From Myxococcota bacterium (GTDB lineage: Bacteria > Myxococcota_A > UBA796), in NCBI GenBank assembly GCA_029251165.1, contig JAQXDW010000052.1, positions 1,736-65,735 on the forward strand: 64,000 nucleotides of DNA. Reading direction: 5' to 3'. Numbering within the stretch: position 1 is the first letter of the stretch; the number at the start of each line of letters is the position of its first letter. Made by a program: the position numbers and the translations under genes. Below are positions 39,550 to 48,073 of this stretch, in pieces. Below the pieces are notes generated by a model. It was not told the DNA's origin, did not search any database, and saw only the letters and a list, made by a program, of their open reading frames with translations.

Positions 39550-40128
39550 ATGCTCCGCCCCCTTCCCAGCACAGAGATCGTCACCGCTGCAATCCGCGGC
39601 GTCCCCGGCGCGCTGGATCGGGTGATGGACGACAGCCTCCCGGTGGTGCTGGGCTGGTGCAAGCGGCTGCTCGGTCCCCGGGGCGATCCAGAGGATGCCA
39701 CCCACGATGTCCTGGTGGTCCTCCTCGACCACCTCGGAGGGCTGGAGGATCCAGTGGCGTTCCCCAGCTGGCTGTTCCAGGTCACCCGACGCGTCCTCGC
39801 CACACACCGTCGACGAGCCTGGCTCCGCCGCTGGCATCCCGAAGCCTCCACCGAGACCACCGATCCCAGCCCCTCTCCCGAGCGCCGCTACCTGCGCGAC
39901 GAGACCGCCCGATCCGTCCAGGAGCTGCTCGATCAGCTCCCCGAGTCCCAGCGCATCACCCTCATCCTCCACGACCTCGAAGATCGCTCTGATGCGGAGG
40001 TCGCGGACATCCTCGGCGTCCCCAAGGGAACGATCAAGAGCCGCCTTCGGCTCGGTCGTGCACGCCTCAAGACACTCGCCGAGGAGGCTGGGCTGGTCCC
40101 GACCTCCACCAAACGGAGCCTCCTGTGA
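39550..40128 (+). CDS. ECF (RpoE-like) sigma-70 family sigma factor
   Basis: Region 2 (DPEDATHDVLVVLL...FPSWLFQVTRR) and region 4 HTH (DAEVADILGVPKGTIKSRLRLGRARL). Confidence 0.9.
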   Translation: MLRPLPSTEIVTAAIRGVPGALDRVMDDSLPVVLGWCKRLLGPRGDPEDATHDVLVVLLDHLGGLEDPVAFPSWLFQVTRRVLATHRRRAWLRRWHPEASTETTDPSPSPERRYLRDETARSVQELLDQLPESQRITLILHDLEDRSDAEVADILGVPKGTIKSRLRLGRARLKTLAEEAGLVPTSTKRSLL

Positions 40129-40916
40129 ACCCCCTCCTCCAGCACCTCGATCGCATCGACGGCCCCACCTCCGAGGAGGCTGAGCGCATCCGGCGTCGGC
40201 TCTCGATGCGACGCCCACACGTCTCCTCGATCCTCATTCCCACCGGGCTCGCGGTGGCGGCTGCCGCTGCACTGCTGCTGGGTGCCCTCCCCTCAGCGAC
40301 GCCGCCCGCTGCCCAGCCAGCTCCCGTCTCTGCCGCGCTTGCCCAGCCCGGCACCGTCGACCTCACGCCGGCGGTTCAGCTGGAGATCGACGGCCAGGGA
40401 AGCGCCAGCGGAGACGCTTCAGACCTCGACATCGCCTGGAAGGTGGGCACCCTGTCCGTCTCCGTGGCCCCCCAGCACGGCGTCGCGCTCACCGTGAACA
40501 CAGAGGAAGCGAACGTCTCCGTAGTCGGCACAGTGTTCACCGTCGCGCGCGGTCCGCTGGGAACCGACATCTCGGTCACAGAGGGTGTGGTCTCCGTGGA
40601 GTGCGTCGACATGACCCGACACCGCCTGGGCGTCGGCGACACCCTGCGCTGCCTCCCGCGCTCCGCGATGAGACGGGTGCTGACCCTGCGCGATCAGGGC
40701 GCTCCGACGGATGTCGTGCTGGCAGAGCTCAGCCGGGGCCTGCTCCTGGACTCGGTCAAGTCGATCAGAGGGGAGCTGTTGAGCCTGAAGATTGAGGTAC
40801 TGTTAGAGCAGGGAAGCCGGCCTGCTGCCGCAGCAGTCGCCTGGCAATACCTCCACGAAGGCCACACCGCGCGCGCTGATCACCTCTCCTCTCTCGCTCA
40901 GGAAGCCCATCCATGA
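40125..40916 (+). CDS. anti-sigma factor, FecR-domain-like, single-pass membrane
   Basis: The GTG start overlaps the sigma gene stop (GTGA). One TM helix (ILIPTGLAVAAAAALLLGAL). FecR-like VGTVFTV...VTEGVVSV. Confidence 0.8.
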   Translation: MNPLLQHLDRIDGPTSEEAERIRRRLSMRRPHVSSILIPTGLAVAAAAALLLGALPSATPPAAQPAPVSAALAQPGTVDLTPAVQLEIDGQGSASGDASDLDIAWKVGTLSVSVAPQHGVALTVNTEEANVSVVGTVFTVARGPLGTDISVTEGVVSVECVDMTRHRLGVGDTLRCLPRSAMRRVLTLRDQGAPTDVVLAELSRGLLLDSVKSIRGELLSLKIEVLLEQGSRPAAAAVAWQYLHEGHTARADHLSSLAQEAHP

Positions 40917-41656
40917 GACACCACCTCTCCCTCCTGCTGGTCACCGGCTGCGGAGAGATTGCTGTGGACTGGCCAGGCACAGCACGCGAAGACACGGTGC
41001 AGCCCGAGCAGAGCAGCGACTCCGACGACGACGGTCTCTCGGATGCCGAAGAGTCTGAGCTCGGTACTGATCCGCAGGATGCAGACACCGACAACGACGG
41101 CTGGGAAGACGGCGAAGAGGTCAAGCTCGGCACCAACCCCAACTACGCCTACAGTCACCCCTACTACGGCGGCTACAACGTCGGCTGGTGCCAGGACAAG
41201 CCCTCAGCAGCCGGACCATCCAGCGGCAACCGCTACGAGCGCGGGGACGTCGTCGAGAACTTCACCCTCACCGATCAGCACGGTGAGCCCGTGGATCTCT
41301 ACTCCTTCTGCGGCCAGCACATGATGCTCATCTTCGGCGAGACCGGCTCCAGCGCGTTCCGAGAGCTCGCCGCAGAAGCCCAGAAGCTCCAAGAATATCA
41401 CGTCGACGACGGCCTCCAGATCATCGAGCTCCTCATCGGTGATGAGACCGGCGGATCAATCTCGGGACTGGAGCAGGTCGAGTGGGCCTCCCAGTACACG
41501 TTCTCCGCCATTCCCGTCCTCGATGAAGACAACCGCACCAATTGGCGCAACTTTGAGCACGACAACCACACGCCGACCATTGTTCACATTGATGCCAATA
41601 TGGAAGTTCTATCCATAGATGACGGGATCATGAGTCCAGCAGAGTGGCTCGAATAG
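40913..41656 (+). CDS. lipoprotein with TSP3 repeats and a thioredoxin-fold (TlpA-like) domain lacking the CxxC motif
   Basis: LLLVTGC lipobox. [26 protein letters not shown] repeats. The redoxin-like core [16 protein letters not shown]...[16 protein letters not shown] has TGSS where WCxxC is expected. Confidence 0.8.
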
Positions 41657-41744
41657 TCAAAAAAGATCATCTCATAGTGATCCTTTCAGCACAATGTGCC
41701 ACCTTTCACACCGACCCAACGATGAACCCACCGGGAGAACCCTG

Positions 41745-42584
41745 ATGAAGCTTCACACCCTCGCCCTGCTCGCTCCGATGTTTCTCGCAGCCTGCAGCTT
41801 CGACTCTGACGAAGACGGCCTGACCAACGCTGAAGAGGAAGAGCTCGGCACGAACCCGGACAAGGCAGACTCCGACGGCGACGGCATCGACGATGCAGAC
41901 GAGGTCGATGGCGGCACCGATCCGACCGAGGCAGACACCGACGGTGACGGCCTTGAGGACGGCGACGAGCTCGACCTGGGCACCGACCCCATCCTCGCAG
42001 ACTCCGACACCGACGGCATCTCTGACGGCGACGAGGCAAGCAACGGCTCGGACCCGCTCAACGTGTACTCGTGGCCCGGCGACGGCATCTGGCCGGACAA
42101 CTCCGCCAAGGCCACCGAGTCCGACACCTACGCATACGATGAGATCTTCCCCAACTTCACCGCCAGTGACCGCTACGAGAACGAGGTCTCCCTCCACCAG
42201 TTCTGGGGTCAGGCCATCCTCCTCGACTTCTCCGCCGGCTGGTGTGGCCCCTGCAAGACGGTCGCCGAGGATGCCCAGGAGATGTGGAGCGAGCAGCGCG
42301 AGGATGGCTTCGTCATCATCCACGCCATGACCGACGGCTACAACACCGACGCCGACAGCGACTTCCTCAACGACTGGGCCGATTCATATGATCTCACCTT
42401 CCCCGTCCTGGGCGAAGGCGAGATCGAGGATGTCTACTACGGCCTCTACGACGCCGGCCTCAACGAGGGATACGTCCCCTACATGCTCGTCCTCGACAAG
42501 GATATGACTCTTCGGAGCATCTATGTCGGCGGCGGCTCCGAGAGCGCGATCGCGTCCGAGATCGAAGACATCATCGCGGAGTAG
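41745..42584 (+). CDS. TlpA/ResA-like thiol-disulfide oxidoreductase lipoprotein with TSP3 repeats
   Basis: [17 protein letters not shown] lipobox. Five TSP3-type DxDxDGxxDxxE repeats. [34 protein letters not shown] active site. Confidence 0.9.
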
Positions 42585-42704: not shown

Positions 42705-43487
42705 TCAATGCCTGGGGATCGGCACCCCGTCTCCGCCGATGAGCGGCGCGTGATCGATGGTGTAATGAGTCGGCATCTGGCGAGCGCTCTCCAGCACCCG
42801 CTCCACCAGCCGGTCGAGCCCCCAGAACACATAGCGGGTGACCAGAGCATCGGGAATCTCGCCGCCCAGCGAGGACGCGCAGTGGTATCCGAACACCGTT
42901 CGTCCGTCGGGAAGGTCGAGGAAGATCCAGGCGCCGAGGTTCACCGGCACCGAGATCGCGGCATCGAAGGCCTCAAGGCTCAGCCCCGCGATCTCTCCAG
43001 CGGCCACCACCGGGCGCATGGTCTCGACAAGCCCCGCCTCTAGTCCCCAGCTTCGCTCCCACATTCCCGCACGCTGCTGAGGCAGTGTGGGGTTGATGGT
43101 GGTCTGGATGAGGAAGTGGCGATCGGTGACGGGTGCCGGCAGCGCGACGTAGCCATACCAGCGGAACAACTCCTCGCCGCGGAGGGGGAGGTGGTGGCTG
43201 ATGAGACTGCTGTCCGTGCCGAAGTGTTCGGAGTCGATCGAGCCAAGCCAGAGATCGACGCGCGAGTGATCAGTGATGACCATCGCCATCGCCCCGTCCG
43301 GTGCCCTGCCCTCGCTGGGGGTGCGCAGCTTGACCACCCGCCCCTCCAGAAGCCGATCGAGCTGGGCATCACTCAGCACCGGGATCGGGTGGCTGGCGTG
43401 GGGAGCGTAGTCCAAGAGGACGGACCGCACGGCAGCGGAATCCAGCGGCTCCGCAAGGGCAGACAGTGTCATCAGCCAGGTAAACAC
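42705..43487 (-). CDS. hypothetical protein
   Basis: 260-aa ORF with good GC3 bias and a signal-like N-terminus (MFTWLMTLSALA). No motif recognised. Confidence 0.7.
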   Translation of the reverse strand: MFTWLMTLSALAEPLDSAAVRSVLLDYAPHASHPIPVLSDAQLDRLLEGRVVKLRTPSEGRAPDGAMAMVITDHSRVDLWLGSIDSEHFGTDSSLISHHLPLRGEELFRWYGYVALPAPVTDRHFLIQTTINPTLPQQRAGMWERSWGLEAGLVETMRPVVAAGEIAGLSLEAFDAAISVPVNLGAWIFLDLPDGRTVFGYHCASSLGGEIPDALVTRYVFWGLDRLVERVLESARQMPTHYTIDHAPLIGGDGVPIPRH

Positions 43488-43616: not shown

Positions 43617-44510
43617 TCACCGCCGAGGTGCCGGGCGGACCGCAGGGACCGACTCCGCGCCATAGACCAGCCCCACCGCGACCATCACCACCGCCGCGCT
43701 CACCTCGCGCGCTGCGCCCGACTGATCGACCAACACAGTCAGCCCTGAGCGGGTCTCACGCCAGCCCACCGCCTGCGCACCGAGGAGCAGGCGGACCCCA
43801 GCCGCATCCAGCCGTCTCCGGACGGCAGCGACCGCAGCAGCCGGGAAGCCAACGAGCAGGGCCGGCTGGTTGTTCAGCACTGTGACCTGACAGCCCGCCT
43901 GTGCCCACAGCAGCGCCACCTCACAGCCGACGTAGCCGCCGCCAATGATCACGGCATCGTCGGGTGTCTGGAGGCGCACAGCAGCGGTGAAGTCGACGAT
44001 CCGACCTCCGAACGGAAAGCCGGGCAGCGGGCGTGCAGTGCCGTGCAGGAACAGGCCGTCCTTGCCGAGGATGCGAGCCACGACAGGCGAGAATCCGGCA
44101 TCAGGGCCGAACGGATGCGCAAGTCGAACCGGACCAGAGACCTCGGCGGGGGCCGTGTCGGTCAGCACCTGGAGCCGCTCCGCCAGCCACACGCCGAGCT
44201 CTGGAGCGCGGAGCAGGCGCCGCAGCGCTCGCTGACGACGGCGTCCAAAGCCGTGGATGGTCCGAAGCGTTCGAAGCGAGCGCACCGGGCCGCGCCTCAC
44301 AATCGCGGCAGCCACAGGCTGCGGGAGGGGACGCAGTCCGGCAGACTCGTGGAGCGCGCCGAGCAGCCACACCCGCTGCTCCACCGTCAGCGGGAGTCCG
44401 ACGATGGTGCGCCAGGCGTGCAGGGCGATCGATGAGGCGTAGTCCGGAATGTCCGCAGCTCCTGGCACGAATTTACCGTAGCGGTTCGATCTCGTGCTTA
44501 CGCTCTGCAC
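43617..44510 (-). CDS. atypical protein containing only the central NAD(P)-binding module of a pyridine nucleotide-disulfide oxidoreductase
   Basis: PDDAVIIGGGYVGCEVALLWAQAGCQVTVL is a Rossmann GxGxxG. The N-terminal FAD-binding GxGxxG and the C-terminal dimerisation domain are absent. The N-terminus is Arg-rich and HhH-like. Confidence 0.5.
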   Translation of the reverse strand: MQSVSTRSNRYGKFVPGAADIPDYASSIALHAWRTIVGLPLTVEQRVWLLGALHESAGLRPLPQPVAAAIVRRGPVRSLRTLRTIHGFGRRRQRALRRLLRAPELGVWLAERLQVLTDTAPAEVSGPVRLAHPFGPDAGFSPVVARILGKDGLFLHGTARPLPGFPFGGRIVDFTAAVRLQTPDDAVIIGGGYVGCEVALLWAQAGCQVTVLNNQPALLVGFPAAAVAAVRRRLDAAGVRLLLGAQAVGWRETRSGLTVLVDQSGAAREVSAAVVMVAVGLVYGAESVPAVRPAPRR

Positions 44511-44521
44511 AGGAGGTGTTC

Positions 44522-44869
44522 TTGGACTTCTTCATCGTCGCCATCACCGGAATGATTGTGCTCGCCGCCCTGCGACGCGCTCTGCGCCCCAGCATCGCTC
44601 CCGCGGATCCGATCCAGGCAGCGCTGCCAGAGACCCTGGCCCGGAGCGCCGACGGCAGCGTGATCGATCCAGAGGCCGACGCTCGGATGCGCCAGGCGTT
44701 CAACGGACTCAACAGCAACCTGTCCTTCCTCGGTGGTCAGGAGAGCTGGGATCTCGGCCCGCCTCCGCCGGTCGCGGAGCTGGAGGCGGACATGGGAGCC
44801 CACCAGCAGATCCTAAGCGCTGCGGAGCTGGCTGCGCTTCAGCCGATGGCCACCCGCTCAACGAAGTGA
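44522..44869 (+). CDS. small membrane-anchored hypothetical protein
   Basis: AGGAGG at 44511-44516, then an in-frame TTG at 44522 (GTG at 44516 is too close). (M)DFFIVAITGMIVLAALRRAL TM helix. High GC3. Confidence 0.45.
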   Translation: MDFFIVAITGMIVLAALRRALRPSIAPADPIQAALPETLARSADGSVIDPEADARMRQAFNGLNSNLSFLGGQESWDLGPPPPVAELEADMGAHQQILSAAELAALQPMATRSTK

Positions 44870-44925
44870 TCCCGACCGACAGCTCCTGCCAGCGTTACGC
44901 TGACGGTGAACCCTGGAGATCCCAG

Positions 44926-45492
44926 ATGCGCATGCTCCTGTTGACCACCGCGCTGCTCGCCGCCTGCGACAGCAAGACCGAAGACGGTCCCGACACCAGC
45001 GACACCAGCGACACCAGCGACACCGACTCATTCGTCGAGGGCTTTGGTGTCGGCGAGGTCCCGCCGGACTTCACCCTCGCTGACGCAGCGGGCAACCTCG
45101 TCTCGCTCTCCGACTTTCCAGAGCAGCGGGTCATGATCGTCGGCACAGCCTCTTGGTGAGGCAGCTGTGTGTCCCTGGTTCAGGGACTTCACGACGAGTA
45201 CTACACCAGCGCCCCTGACGACGTCGAGGTCCTCACGGTCCTCACCCAGGATGCCCAGGCCAACGACGCCGATGCCGCCGATGCTGCGGACTTCGTTGGC
45301 TTCACCGGGGTCACCTTCCCCGTCCTCGGCGATGCCGATGGCGAGTGGCTGGCGACGTGGGGAGGAGCCGACGGGACCAGCCAGCACAGCTACACCATCC
45401 TCAACACCAACGGCACCATCGCCTGGCGACAGGACGACGGCACCAGCAGCTCTGTTGCGATGCTCTCGGCGATGATGGAGTCCGCTCAGTAG
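44926..45492 (+). CDS. TlpA-like thioredoxin-fold lipoprotein, probable selenoprotein (in-frame TGA at 45157-45159 read as Sec; U-x-x-C motif)
   Basis: ORF ...MRMLLLTTALLAACDSK...FTLADAAGNLVSLSDFPEQRVMIVGTASW stops at TGA. The next ORF (45169..45492) is in the same frame. The joined product reads ...IVGTASW-U-GSC-VSLVQGLHDEY...VTFPVLGDADGEW...YTILNTNGTIAWRQDDG, a complete redoxin fold with TGA exactly at the first Cys of WCxxC. Confidence 0.7.
45156..45192 (+). other. bacterial SECIS-like stem-loop immediately 3' of the in-frame UGA
   Basis: Upper stem GTCCCTG (45171-45177), GTT loop, CAGGGAC (45181-45187). Lower stem GTGA (45156-45159) with TCAC (45189-45192). The apical loop starts with GU, about 18 nt after the UGA. 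Confidence 0.55.
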
Positions 45493-45581
45493 AGACGCCA
45501 GGGCGGCGGTGGTCGTCCTCGGGCGCGGCGATGCTCGAGGGCTCCGGAGCCGTGTCGTCAGCAGGGGCTGCTCAGCGGCGG

Positions 45582-46181
45582 CTACTCTGAGGGCGTGTCC
45601 GCCGGCTGCTCGCGGTCCCACGGCGTCGCGCACGTGCCCATCTCGCTGATGGTCGCGACGTCCAGCCCCGCGTCATGCCACGACTCCGCCGAGCGCTCCG
45701 AGAGGAGCGCGCAGGCCGCAGCGGCACGAAGCACAACCTCCTCAGCCGTCGTCATGAGTCCAGAGAGCACCTGACGTCCAGGCTCGTCGTGCGCGAGGCT
45801 GACGGCCATCGGCCGCCACAGCGGCATCGGTGCCGCAGCGATGTCCACAGCAGCAGACGAGATCTCGACACGCACCGCATCGGGCACGTCTGCCGCCGAG
45901 AGCGCCCACCACAGGATCTCGCGGCTCTCCACCGGCTTCTCGCTTGAGCGCGCGCTGCTCAGGAGACGGTCGCAGGAGACCTCACAGCGCCGCTGCATCG
46001 CCTCGATTCGCACCAGCTGACCGCCTGGCGAGCGCGGCGGGGGACGCAGTGCCTCCGACGCACTCGGCGGAGTCGGCACGCTGGGCACCACCGACGGAGC
46101 CGGCGCAGCAGGCGCGCCGACGACAGGGGGTGGGGTGACGGACTCAGCGGAACAGGCGAAGAAGAGGAGAGGCAGCATCAC
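45582..46181 (-). CDS. hypothetical lipoprotein
   Basis: MMLPLLFFAC lipobox, Pro-rich linker, good GC3. Confidence 0.7.
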   Translation of the reverse strand: MMLPLLFFACSAESVTPPPVVGAPAAPAPSVVPSVPTPPSASEALRPPPRSPGGQLVRIEAMQRRCEVSCDRLLSSARSSEKPVESREILWWALSAADVPDAVRVEISSAAVDIAAAPMPLWRPMAVSLAHDEPGRQVLSGLMTTAEEVVLRAAAACALLSERSAESWHDAGLDVATISEMGTCATPWDREQPADTPSE

Positions 46182-46223: not shown

Positions 46224-46523
46224 TCAGTCGCAGTCCCAGACCGACGCGCAGGCCGCAGGGAGCGCAGCATCCGACGAGCCTGCCGGGCAGTCGATCGCGG
46301 CATAGTCCTGAACACACTCCTGCGCGGCGTCCGGATCGTAGGTGCAGGAGTCCGAGATCCCGGTGCGGCTGTCGGCGGCCACACGAAGGCACTCTGCGTG
46401 CTCCTGATAGGAGAAGCAGTCGGTCTGCCAGTCACAGCTCGCCGCGTCGAAGTCATCGAGGAAGGTCTCCTCGGGGTAAGAGCAGCCCGTCGCCAGCAGC
46501 AGGAAGGTCAGCATGCTCATCAT
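46224..46523 (-). CDS. small Cys-rich lipoprotein
   Basis: MMSMLTFLLLATGC lipobox and 9 further Cys in 99 aa. The start overlaps the stop of the upstream DUF2330-like gene (ATGA-type coupling). Confidence 0.7.
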   Translation of the reverse strand: MMSMLTFLLLATGCSYPEETFLDDFDAASCDWQTDCFSYQEHAECLRVAADSRTGISDSCTYDPDAAQECVQDYAAIDCPAGSSDAALPAACASVWDCD

Positions 46524-48073
46524 CCCTCCTCCCGCCGACGGATCGCACCGACTCCCAGCAGCGCCAGCGAGAGGATCACCACCGAGCGCCCAGCCCCCTC
46601 ACAGGCCATCGCGCCCGGATCGACCGCGGCGATGGTCGGCTCCAGCTCCCCGCTCGCCGCCCGCAGCCAGTACTCCGACGAGTAGCAGCTCCCTGGCTCT
46701 TCTGGGAGCTCATCGCAGACCGGCAGGAGGCCCTCCAGCTCCCAGCGGCGGATGATGTAGCGGACCTGCGCCTGGTCCTGGACCCGGGTGGGGTAGAGCA
46801 TGAGGTCTTGGGGAACGGACTGCGGGGTGTACCGCAGCCGCAGCCGGGTGACATGCCAGCCGTCCCAGGCGCTTCGCAGGCCGAGCTGCCACAGCTCATC
46901 CTCGGTGATCGGATCGCTGGAGGCATCGCGGGGATCCGGCTCTGGGCAGGGATCGCACTTCACCGCCGAGTCCACGCCGTTCAGCGACACCCCCCAGCTG
47001 TACTCCGTCGACCACGACAGCCCCGGCGTCTCAGAGGAGACCCCCGCAGCATCTGACCACAGCGCCTCGTAGGCATCGCTGAAGTCGGTGACCGGCTGGT
47101 CTGCATCCACATCGAGCATGCACTCGTCGCCGGGAGGATCGATCTCCGGGTAGTTGCTGATGCCGACCCGTCCATCAGCATGCGGAGTGAGCGTGTAGAC
47201 GATGAGGTCCTGCATCCCCGCAGAGGAGACGGTGCCGAGCCGAATCGGCAGGCTCCAGGCGGGCGTGTCGTAGGTCAGCTGGAGGGGAGAGAGCCAGTCC
47301 TGACCGGCGGGGACAAGCTCGGTGTTGATGCGCAGTGCCAGGAAGCGGCCCTCGGTGCTGATGTACTCATCGAGGAGCTCCGTGGCACCGCCGGGCATGA
47401 CGAAGTCGTTGTCGCTCAGCCAGCGAGTCAGACCCTCCGCTTCATCTGCACGCAGCACCCACAGCTCATACTCACCGAGGCTGAATTCATCCTCGATGAC
47501 CACACCGGTTGCAGTGTCGAGACGATCATCGGTGGTGTCCGTCTCAGAGAGGTAGGCCGTGCTGGGACCGCCACCGCAGCCGGAGGACGACGCGGATCTG
47601 CTGAAGCTGTCGCCGATGTCGGCCGTGTCGAAGACGCCCTCGCTGTCTGGGACCGCGACGCTTCGGCTCGACGAGGCCGAGCCTCCCGTGCCCGGCGCGA
47701 CCACCATGGGATCGATGGTGATGCCGTCGTCGTTGAAGAAGTCCTCGCAGGTGTACTGAACGAGACGGGGGGCAGAGTAGCGGTCGAGCCGGTCGATCAG
47801 CTCAGGCACGACGAGCCGGATGTTGTCGGAGTCGATGGTCGCAGAGACGGGGATGACCATGCCAAACGTTGAGGCATCCCCCTCAAAGTCATTGAACATC
47901 GTCAGGGTGGTGATCGAGCCTTCGCGGGCGAGGACGATCCGGCTCGCATTGTTGTGAATCTCGTCCCCCTCTGCGCCCACATAGGCCCCACAGAAGGCAT
48001 CAGAGAGGTCTGGGCAGAGCAGCCCAGCGGCCAGCATCAGTGGCATCCAGCGTCGCATGGTTGTTTCCTCCAT
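46520..48073 (-). CDS. DUF2330-like secreted protein with C-terminal TM/Arg sorting tail
   Basis: N-terminal signal then FCGAYVG motif. C-terminus ACEGAGRSVVILSLALLGVGAIRRREEG. The likely true start is MRRWMPL at 48058 (GGAGGAAACAACC before it). Confidence 0.85.
   Translation of the reverse strand: MEETTMRRWMPLMLAAGLLCPDLSDAFCGAYVGAEGDEIHNNASRIVLAREGSITTLTMFNDFEGDASTFGMVIPVSATIDSDNIRLVVPELIDRLDRYSAPRLVQYTCEDFFNDDGITIDPMVVAPGTGGSASSSRSVAVPDSEGVFDTADIGDSFSRSASSSGCGGGPSTAYLSETDTTDDRLDTATGVVIEDEFSLGEYELWVLRADEAEGLTRWLSDNDFVMPGGATELLDEYISTEGRFLALRINTELVPAGQDWLSPLQLTYDTPAWSLPIRLGTVSSAGMQDLIVYTLTPHADGRVGISNYPEIDPPGDECMLDVDADQPVTDFSDAYEALWSDAAGVSSETPGLSWSTEYSWGVSLNGVDSAVKCDPCPEPDPRDASSDPITEDELWQLGLRSAWDGWHVTRLRLRYTPQSVPQDLMLYPTRVQDQAQVRYIIRRWELEGLLPVCDELPEEPGSCYSSEYWLRAASGELEPTIAAVDPGAMACEGAGRSVVILSLALLGVGAIRRREEG

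Follow-up and report, generated by a model that had tools for sequence, protein, structure and literature searches.

A UGA codon probably read as selenocysteine in a predicted redoxin lipoprotein of an uncultured Myxococcota bacterium

The window analysed here is a stretch of 64,000 nucleotides (positions 1,736 to 65,735 of the forward strand of contig JAQXDW010000052.1, assembly GCA_029251165.1) from a bacterium of the Myxococcota, and the element in question is its segment 44926-45492, which most probably constitutes one monocistronic gene for a 188-residue selenoprotein in which the UGA at codon 78 encodes selenocysteine (Sec, U); the probability of this reading is put at about 0.9 on computed evidence. 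The reading of UGA as Sec is drawn from a single open frame, the fold of its product, the Sec machinery of the genome, the alternation of Sec and Cys at the aligned codon, selection downstream of it, and the conservation of an RNA hairpin. The case is soundly supported but rather unremarkable: the protein is a new member of a class of selenoproteins well known from marine bacteria. It opens no new kind of biology, since predictions of UxxC redoxin selenoproteins from marine metagenomes date back to 2005. Part of its interest lies in annotation: this gene and dozens of related ones are each split by gene callers into two “hypothetical” pieces, from which the reading of UGA as Sec would restore a complete redox enzyme of the cell envelope.

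Translated with TGA as Sec, the segment is one 188-codon frame that runs on the plus strand from the ATG at 44926 to the TAG at 45490-45492, with no frameshifts; its sole internal stop is the TGA at 45157-45159 (codon 78), in the context IVGTASW-U-GSC. The two entries of the open reading frame (ORF) table that cover it, 44494..45159 and 45169..45492, lie in this same frame and both form parts of the 188-residue product, as had been proposed in a preliminary description of the window made from the sequence alone. Two Pfam domains, both matching residues 42-171, span the TGA: Redoxin (PF08534; 2.9e-14, 53.6 bits with a cut-off of 26.6) and AhpC-TSA (PF00578; 1.3e-13, 51.4 bits with a cut-off of 26). 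The features of the gene and of its recoded codon are the following.

44915..44919, plus strand: Shine-Dalgarno-like GGAGA, 6 nt before the ATG, read from the sequence
44926..45492, plus strand: complete coding sequence of 188 codons, including the predicted Sec78, with the stop codon TAG at 45490-45492 (translation with TGA as U; Pfam matches across the TGA)
45157..45159, plus strand: UGA codon 78, predicted to encode Sec, opening a U-G-S-C redox motif (aligned TGA in 37 loci, Cys in 11)
45166..45168, plus strand: Cys81 (TGT), the residue paired with Sec78 in UxxC (invariant column C81 of alignment A1)
45171..45187, plus strand: apical hairpin of the bacterial selenocysteine insertion sequence (bSECIS) type, GUCCCUG-GUU-CAGGGAC, 7 bp, loop 18 nt from the UGA, conserved with covariation

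A six-frame homologue search of 61 related genomes, for which 150 matches were listed, returned exactly one in-frame TGA in 14 of the 15 best matches and in approximately 63 of the 150 (table count). Among the 48 loci that were read, 37 carry TGA and 11 carry Cys. The TGA occupies the first position of W/F/T-[U]-x-x-C in every one of the 37, and the 11 Cys loci have WCGPC, WCAPC or a similar motif at the aligned codon, so that the column reads W-[U/C]-x-x-C. The TGA loci come from dozens of independent assemblies and from seven families of the order, with two copies each in the genome of the window and in a congener: the second copy in the former lies on another contig (C85) and displays 58% identity, while the congener (G001) holds orthologues of both copies, at 78% and 62% identity. 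The near clade (E <= 1e-22), collected among 154 genomes of the order, has 20 members in 16 genomes, 18 of them with Sec and 2 with Cys. A maximum-likelihood tree implies at least four switches between Sec and Cys, with three Cys forms nested within Sec clades and Sec kept across deep branches, which is the pattern of dynamic Cys/Sec exchange known for bacterial redox selenoproteins (PMC1794560). Conservation in alignment A1 continues over 110 residues after the TGA, and the ratio of nonsynonymous to synonymous change (pN/pS), measured against the same-genus orthologue, is 0.295 in the 110 codons after the TGA and 0.30 in the 44 codons before it. The orthologues behave as the preliminary description had anticipated, with alternation at this exact codon and a conserved downstream sequence, which speaks against a genuine stop or a split gene.

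A single-protein query of a wider contig collection gave no matches, and a narrower alignment (A2) used as seed did give matches. Four of the Sec redoxin genes (L051, L053, L055 and L057) stand in records titled ‘uncultured Enterobacterales/Enterobacteriaceae bacterium’ (TPA_asm metagenome-assembled genomes); they nest among Myxococcota sequences in the tree, and these titles look like default mislabels.

To our knowledge, all bacterial selenoprotein mRNAs carry the SECIS hairpin inside the coding sequence, and the bSECIS rules of the program bSECISearch require 16-37 nt between the UGA and an apical loop that has a G in its first two positions. The hairpin downstream of codon 78 has this geometry: arms G45171-G45177 and C45181-C45187 enclose a GUU loop, with a gap of 11 nt between the UGA and the stem. 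As background, only 0.44% of positions taken at random in the genome have a perfect Watson-Crick stem of at least 7 bp whose G-first loop begins 16-37 nt downstream of them. In a gapless alignment of the 16 closest Sec sequences (A3) the seven stem pairs are formed in 92% of cells, and slid registers reach 12-61%. Pair 22-36 changes from UA to GC in five sequences, the first base of a Ser/Ala codon covarying with the third base of a Gly codon, and pair 23-35 changes from CG to UA in one sequence; the covariation score was reached by none of 500 shuffles. A stem-loop is present in all 25 Sec loci first examined, with its apex approximately 20-25 nt after the UGA, and 12 Cys loci have no consistent structure at this position. 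In distant Sec clades the spacing of the hairpin is kept while the stem sequence is unrelated, as in GAGGCC-GGU-GGCCUC, and similar hairpins with GGU, GGUC or GUU loops occur in selD and in other Sec redoxin genes of the window genome. The fate of the hairpin upon loss of Sec can be followed in two sister species of one genus: the Sec form (L076, G084:C172) has a perfect 8-bp hairpin, GGUCCCUG-GUU-CAGGGACU, which is lost in the Cys form (L077, WCSRC, G086:C22), where three amino-acid changes turn S-L-V-Q-G into G-L-I-Q-E at the hairpin site.

The 7-bp stem, its GUU loop and its agreement with the SECIS rules were all part of the preliminary description, and stand with the addition of conservation and compensatory changes. 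Its further proposal of a lower stem GUGA/UCAC that includes the UGA does not hold, since these positions are paired in 52% of cells in the 16 close relatives and display no compensatory change. The minimum free energy fold extends the stem by UGUG/CACG (45166-69 with 45190-93), a weakly supported extension that is conserved at 50-94% only. In comparison with bSECIS elements as typified by E. coli fdhF, the hairpin shares a location within the coding sequence, shortly downstream of the UGA, and a loop that is 16-37 nt away with a G in its first two positions; it differs in its short and perfect 7-bp stem, its 3-nt loop, the absence of a conserved bulged U, and its variable lower stem.

The genome (G000) is a metagenome-assembled genome (MAG) of 8.0 Mb in 152 contigs, 90.75% complete, in which the window lies on contig C107. 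The preliminary description had pointed to selA, selB, selC and selD as the genes to look for, and all four are present: tRNA-Sec scores 65.3 bits, above the Rfam cut-off, and is called SeC with anticodon tca by ARAGORN, while selB (311 bits, full model), selA (501 bits) and selD (354 bits) all exceed their curated cut-offs. The selD gene (G000:C24:43452-44375) has an in-frame TGA of its own (VECAG-U-ASK, TGA at C24:43482), and its hairpin, GGGCCAGA-GGU-UCUGGCCC, starts 13 nt after the UGA. Among the related genomes, which belong to the same family and order, 58 of 61 carry selA, and the three that do not (G050, G055 and G057) have only non-TGA homologues among the matches listed. An origin of the sel genes in contamination was rejected in view of the composition of their contigs, whose GC and tetranucleotide frequencies are typical for the bin, and of the occurrence of selA across relatives, because of which the Sec trait cannot be ascribed to a contaminant. 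Genome-wide recoding of TGA was also considered and rejected: TGA terminates many homologous genes, and the Sec machinery accounts for the single site.

Several observations weigh on the other side. The contamination estimate of the MAG is 7.75%. The fold energy of the 66-nt region 45150-45215, in a sequence of 65% GC, is unremarkable when set against shuffles (z = -0.95); energy alone not being exceptional, it is not used as evidence, and the significance of the hairpin is taken from its position, conservation and covariation. Part of that conservation is due to the protein, because the hairpin overlaps the conserved codons S-L-V-Q-G-L. A search of Rfam with 44900-45500, at E values up to 10, returned chance matches to miRNA and snoRNA models only and no SECIS family, bacterial SECIS elements being too variable for those models. 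The gene neighbourhood is not conserved among close homologues, and therefore indicates neither a substrate nor a partner. Finally, the active-site cis-proline typical of TlpA/ResA reductases is missing, as described below, which weakens the specific reading as a ‘protein disulfide reductase’.

The signal peptide, lipobox and thioredoxin fold ascribed to the protein by the preliminary description are all supported by sequence pattern, by the homologues, by Pfam and by an AlphaFold2 (AF2) model, which locate its parts as follows (pLDDT, predicted local distance difference test).

44926..44967, plus strand: predicted lipoprotein signal peptide MRMLLLTTALLAAC, with the lipobox L-A-A-C and Cys14 as the predicted lipid-modified residue (pattern reading)
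44968..45048, plus strand: acidic low-complexity tether (DSKTEDGPDTSDTSDTSDTDS...), predicted to be disordered (residues 15-41, AF2 pLDDT about 50)
45049..45489, plus strand: thioredoxin-fold domain (TlpA/ResA/Prx-like), residues 42-188 (AF2, Foldseek, profile)
45382..45393, plus strand: Q153-H154-S155-Y156, in place of the active-site cis-proline loop (alignment A1, hidden Markov model alignment to 2yp6)

The N-terminus, MRMLLLTTALL-AAC, fits the lipobox pattern [LVI][ASTVI][GAS]C, and a lipobox stands at the same place in nearly all of 30 homologues; at the position of the tether, relatives have linkers of variable length that are rich in D/T or consist of bacterial TSP3 repeats. The residue after Cys14 (44968-44970) is Asp. 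In E. coli, Asp after the lipidated Cys is a signal for retention in the inner membrane; the sorting rules of myxobacteria differ, and the final membrane of the lipoprotein is uncertain for this reason.

The AF2 model, generated from alignment A1, has a mean pLDDT of 86 and a predicted template modelling score (pTM) of 0.75, with pLDDT values of 49-57 for residues 1-40 and above 90 from residue 41 onward. It places Sec78 at the start of a helix spanning residues 79-95, and the motif W77-U78-G-S-C81 corresponds to a thioredoxin-like UxxC. Foldseek superimposes the model on ResA with template modelling (TM) scores of 0.84-0.88 over 142-147 columns (1st9, TM 0.88, 1.9-2.1 Å root-mean-square deviation), on DsbE (3gl3, TM 0.83) and on Etrx2 (2yp6, TM 0.80), and AhpE and thiol peroxidases are also structural neighbours. 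The best sequence-profile match in the PDB is again Etrx2 (2yp6, E = 1.4e-22), whose alignment starts in the lipoprotein signal region and runs on to the C-terminus. The N-terminal hairpin and central insert that characterize the fold of the TlpA/ResA/CcmG family (cd02966) are present in the Foldseek comparison, but the cis-proline of that family is not: in the alignments, the residue opposite the Pro of Etrx2 and of the more remote homologues is H154. All of the near clade (loci L020-L025 and L066-L081) has Q-[HRW]-[ST]-[YF] at this site, with a variable H/R/W position, and this sequence may mark a subfamily with altered chemistry.

Placement of the protein among known systems gives a mixed picture. 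ResA of Bacillus subtilis, TlpA and CcmG-DsbE are the best structural matches, have their redox motif at the same place and are tethered to the membrane outside the cytoplasm, and a donor of the DsbD/CcdA type is available in the window genome; these proteins use Cys and a cis-Pro loop, whereas the window protein has a predicted Sec and no cis-Pro. ResA, TlpA and CcmG are dedicated to the maturation of cytochrome c or of oxidases, and no genes for such maturation adjoin the Sec redoxin gene. The score against the NCBIfam ResA model (NF002854) is 30.9 bits, far below its cut-off of 170. Etrx1 and Etrx2 of Streptococcus pneumoniae (4hqs, 2yp6, 4hqz) share the thioredoxin fold, the lipid anchor (predicted here) and the position of the redox motif (WCxxC), but use Cys, keep the cis-Pro and act at a Gram-positive surface. 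The partner of the Etrx proteins is the surface methionine sulfoxide reductase (Msr) MsrAB2, and no Msr gene is adjacent to the Sec redoxin gene. The NCBIfam entry NF041054 (‘ResA-like WAxxUGC motif-containing protein’) likewise combines a ResA-like fold with Sec in the active-site region; the window protein is not a member, because motif and length differ, and it scores 27 bits with a cut-off of 300 and matches only positions 84-168 of the 354 in the profile. It belongs to no curated NCBIfam equivalog.

If the reading as a selenoprotein is correct, SelB would act on the hairpin at 45171-45187 to deliver Sec-tRNA(Sec) to the UGA at codon 78, where selenium would be inserted. The precursor would then be exported, lipidated on Cys14 and cleaved, leaving a flexible acidic tether of approximately 27 residues and a ResA/TlpA/Prx-like domain on the periplasmic side of a membrane. 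There, Sec78 and Cys81, at the N-terminus of helix 1, would cycle between the selenol/thiol and selenenylsulfide states. Homology suggests that the protein may be an extracytoplasmic thiol-disulfide oxidoreductase that reduces an envelope substrate, or possibly a peroxide, and that is recharged through a membrane electron carrier of the CcdA/DsbD type, of which the genome has one gene (DsbD_TM, G000:C46:170448-171092). Selenium insertion, lipidation, membrane location, electron donor and substrate are in each case predictions.

The missing cis-Pro makes room for a role as peroxidase or sensor, and the strongest rival explanation, unlikely but of some weight, is that the same selenoprotein is a thiol or selenol peroxidase of the envelope (Prx/GPx-like) or a redox sensor, and not a disulfide reductase of the TlpA/ResA type. 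The AhpC-TSA match is as strong as the Redoxin match, the structural neighbours include AhpE and thiol peroxidases, and the Q-[HRW]-[ST]-[YF] sequence not only replaces the loop that holds the substrate but puts His or Arg where Prx has a conserved Arg. Sec, moreover, favours peroxide chemistry. However, the motif is the UxxC of thioredoxins and not TxxU or PxxxTxxC, the best matches by both sequence and structure are ResA and Etrx2, and the H/R/W position is not invariant in the near clade. A true Prx selenoprotein (TxxU, PxxxTxxC/U) was considered separately and rejected: Thr precedes U by four residues instead of three, Pro is absent, and the motif runs on as UxxC. A bolder proposal, which is speculative and carries a little less weight still, would make the protein a member of an uncatalogued subfamily within an order-specific radiation of lipid-anchored Sec redoxins, whose Q-[HRW]-S-Y loop confers a changed chemistry (that of an envelope selenol peroxidase or redox sensor), and whose minimal SECIS (6-8 bp, perfectly paired, topped by a G-first triloop approximately 20 nt after the UGA) is the standard SelB target of the lineage.

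It is very improbable that ribosomes pass the UGA without inserting selenium, through near-cognate incorporation of Trp or Cys, or that the codon mostly terminates translation, so that the product would be a protein without Sec or a lipopeptide of 77 residues. Decoding of UGA as Sec is inefficient and depends on the selenium supply, which lends this idea some plausibility, but the set of selABCD genes is complete, the conserved SECIS-type hairpin vanishes when the codon becomes Cys, the three relatives without selA follow the pattern described above, and purifying selection downstream of the TGA equals that upstream. The notion of a pseudogene, or of a sequencing or assembly error that splits a former Cys redoxin gene, can draw on the splitting of the gene by standard gene callers and on the nature of the assembly as a MAG, and is effectively refuted, along with that of two separate genes, by the TGA at the same codon in 37 loci from dozens of independent assemblies and seven families, by the lack of other stops or frameshifts, by conservation downstream, and by a pN/pS of 0.30 after the TGA.

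Selenoproteins of the Prx-like and Trx-like UxxC type are among the most abundant marine selenoproteins and have been catalogued since 2005 (PMC13188914 Table 1, PMC2398784 Table 2, PMC1088965). The Global Ocean Sampling (GOS) survey lists 225 sequences as “Prx-like 1” (pfam00578) and 68 as “Prx-like 3” (pfam08534) (PMC2398784), and the Sargasso Sea study reported 21 Prx-like UXXC and 4 thiol-disulfide isomerase-like sequences (PMC1088965). The window protein resembles this Prx-like/TlpA-like class in having the same Pfam domains above the gathering score, Sec as the first residue of UxxC, abundant Cys homologues, an origin in marine or uncultured bacteria, and a function predicted from homology only; it differs as a lipoprotein with an acidic tether and without the cis-proline loop. 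Lipoproteins or signal peptides for the class receive no mention in PMC13188914, PMC2398784 or PMC1088965, and precedents for exported or lipoprotein selenoproteins exist in the SAO system (bioRxiv 10.1101/2022.07.06.499078). The comparison is one by description, and places the protein in the class rather than in a particular subfamily. Assignment to the UGSC-containing family of the GOS survey, which has no Pfam domain (PMC2398784 Table 2; also compared by description), was rejected: the window protein has Pfam domains, and the tetrapeptide is not kept even in close relatives, which have UPSC, UNTC, USTC and USRC. The preliminary description was right that U-x-x-C selenoproteins are known in bacteria, but the lipid-anchored redoxin is less notable than it had claimed, because the class is already catalogued.

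Selenium use is near-universal in this order of uncultured Myxococcota, as judged by the distribution of selA, and the order has a large radiation of Sec redoxin lipoproteins, with several Sec paralogues per genome and many with TSP3 or acidic linkers. Much of the selenium of the order would go into exported, lipid-anchored thioredoxin-fold proteins, of which the window genome is predicted to encode at least four. These observations bear on selenium demand and on how marine predatory or social bacteria handle oxidative stress in their cell envelope, and natural Sec/Cys pairs such as L076/L077 offer material for the study of SECIS gain and loss inside coding sequences. Other candidate Sec genes of the genome were collected by homology and by a genome-wide TGA scan based on GC content at third codon positions, which gave 382 candidates, many of them antisense or adjacent-gene artefacts; those confirmed by Pfam were kept, and scan candidates on contigs C101, C125 and C27 were rejected as non-coding-looking.

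G000:C85:1241, plus strand: Sec redoxin paralogue with TGA at the first motif Cys, 58% identity
G000:C96:77878-77880, minus strand: TGA in a protein of approximately 619 aa with a C-terminal AhpC-TSA domain (9.7e-26), motif FATW-U-PQC, hairpin loop GGUC
G000:C135:99180-99182, minus strand: TGA in a TSP3-repeat lipoprotein, motif GAFW-U-PSC
G000:C19:70138-70140, minus strand: TGA in a fragment at a contig end, motif HAT-U-SYC, Pfam score borderline (25.4 with a cut-off of 26)

In the window, the Sec redoxin gene stands alone, flanked by minus-strand genes, two of them 5' and one 3' of it. A promoter and terminator scan of 44400-45750 found none, and a search for ECF-type GGAAC-N-CGT sites returned no more of them than chance would give, and none upstream of the gene. 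Further upstream, an extracytoplasmic function (ECF) sigma factor (39550-40128) and a FecR-like anti-sigma factor (40125-40916) precede a pair of redoxin lipoproteins with TSP3 repeats, of which one (40913-41656) has no CxxC, with GETGSSAF at the aligned place, and the other (41694-42584 in the ORF table) has WCGPC at the position of the Sec motif, as first described. The preliminary description had set the Sec protein next to these Cys and degenerate paralogues. Both exist, but they are distant, at approximately 29% identity to the Sec protein, and two minus-strand genes lie between; for these two reasons, they do not form a recent graded series.

The divergent upstream neighbour (43617-44510, minus strand) matches only positions 116-237 of the 291 in the Pyr_redox_2 profile, and would be the NAD(P)H-binding module of a pyridine nucleotide-disulfide oxidoreductase, either in truncated form or on its own. 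The remaining minus-strand ORFs around the gene (46520-48073, 45582-46181, 46224-46523 and 42705-43487) comprise a downstream DUF2330 protein (5.6e-45) and three ORFs with no Pfam match, among which an ORF of 99 aa is Cys-rich and starts with a lipobox-like LLATGC.

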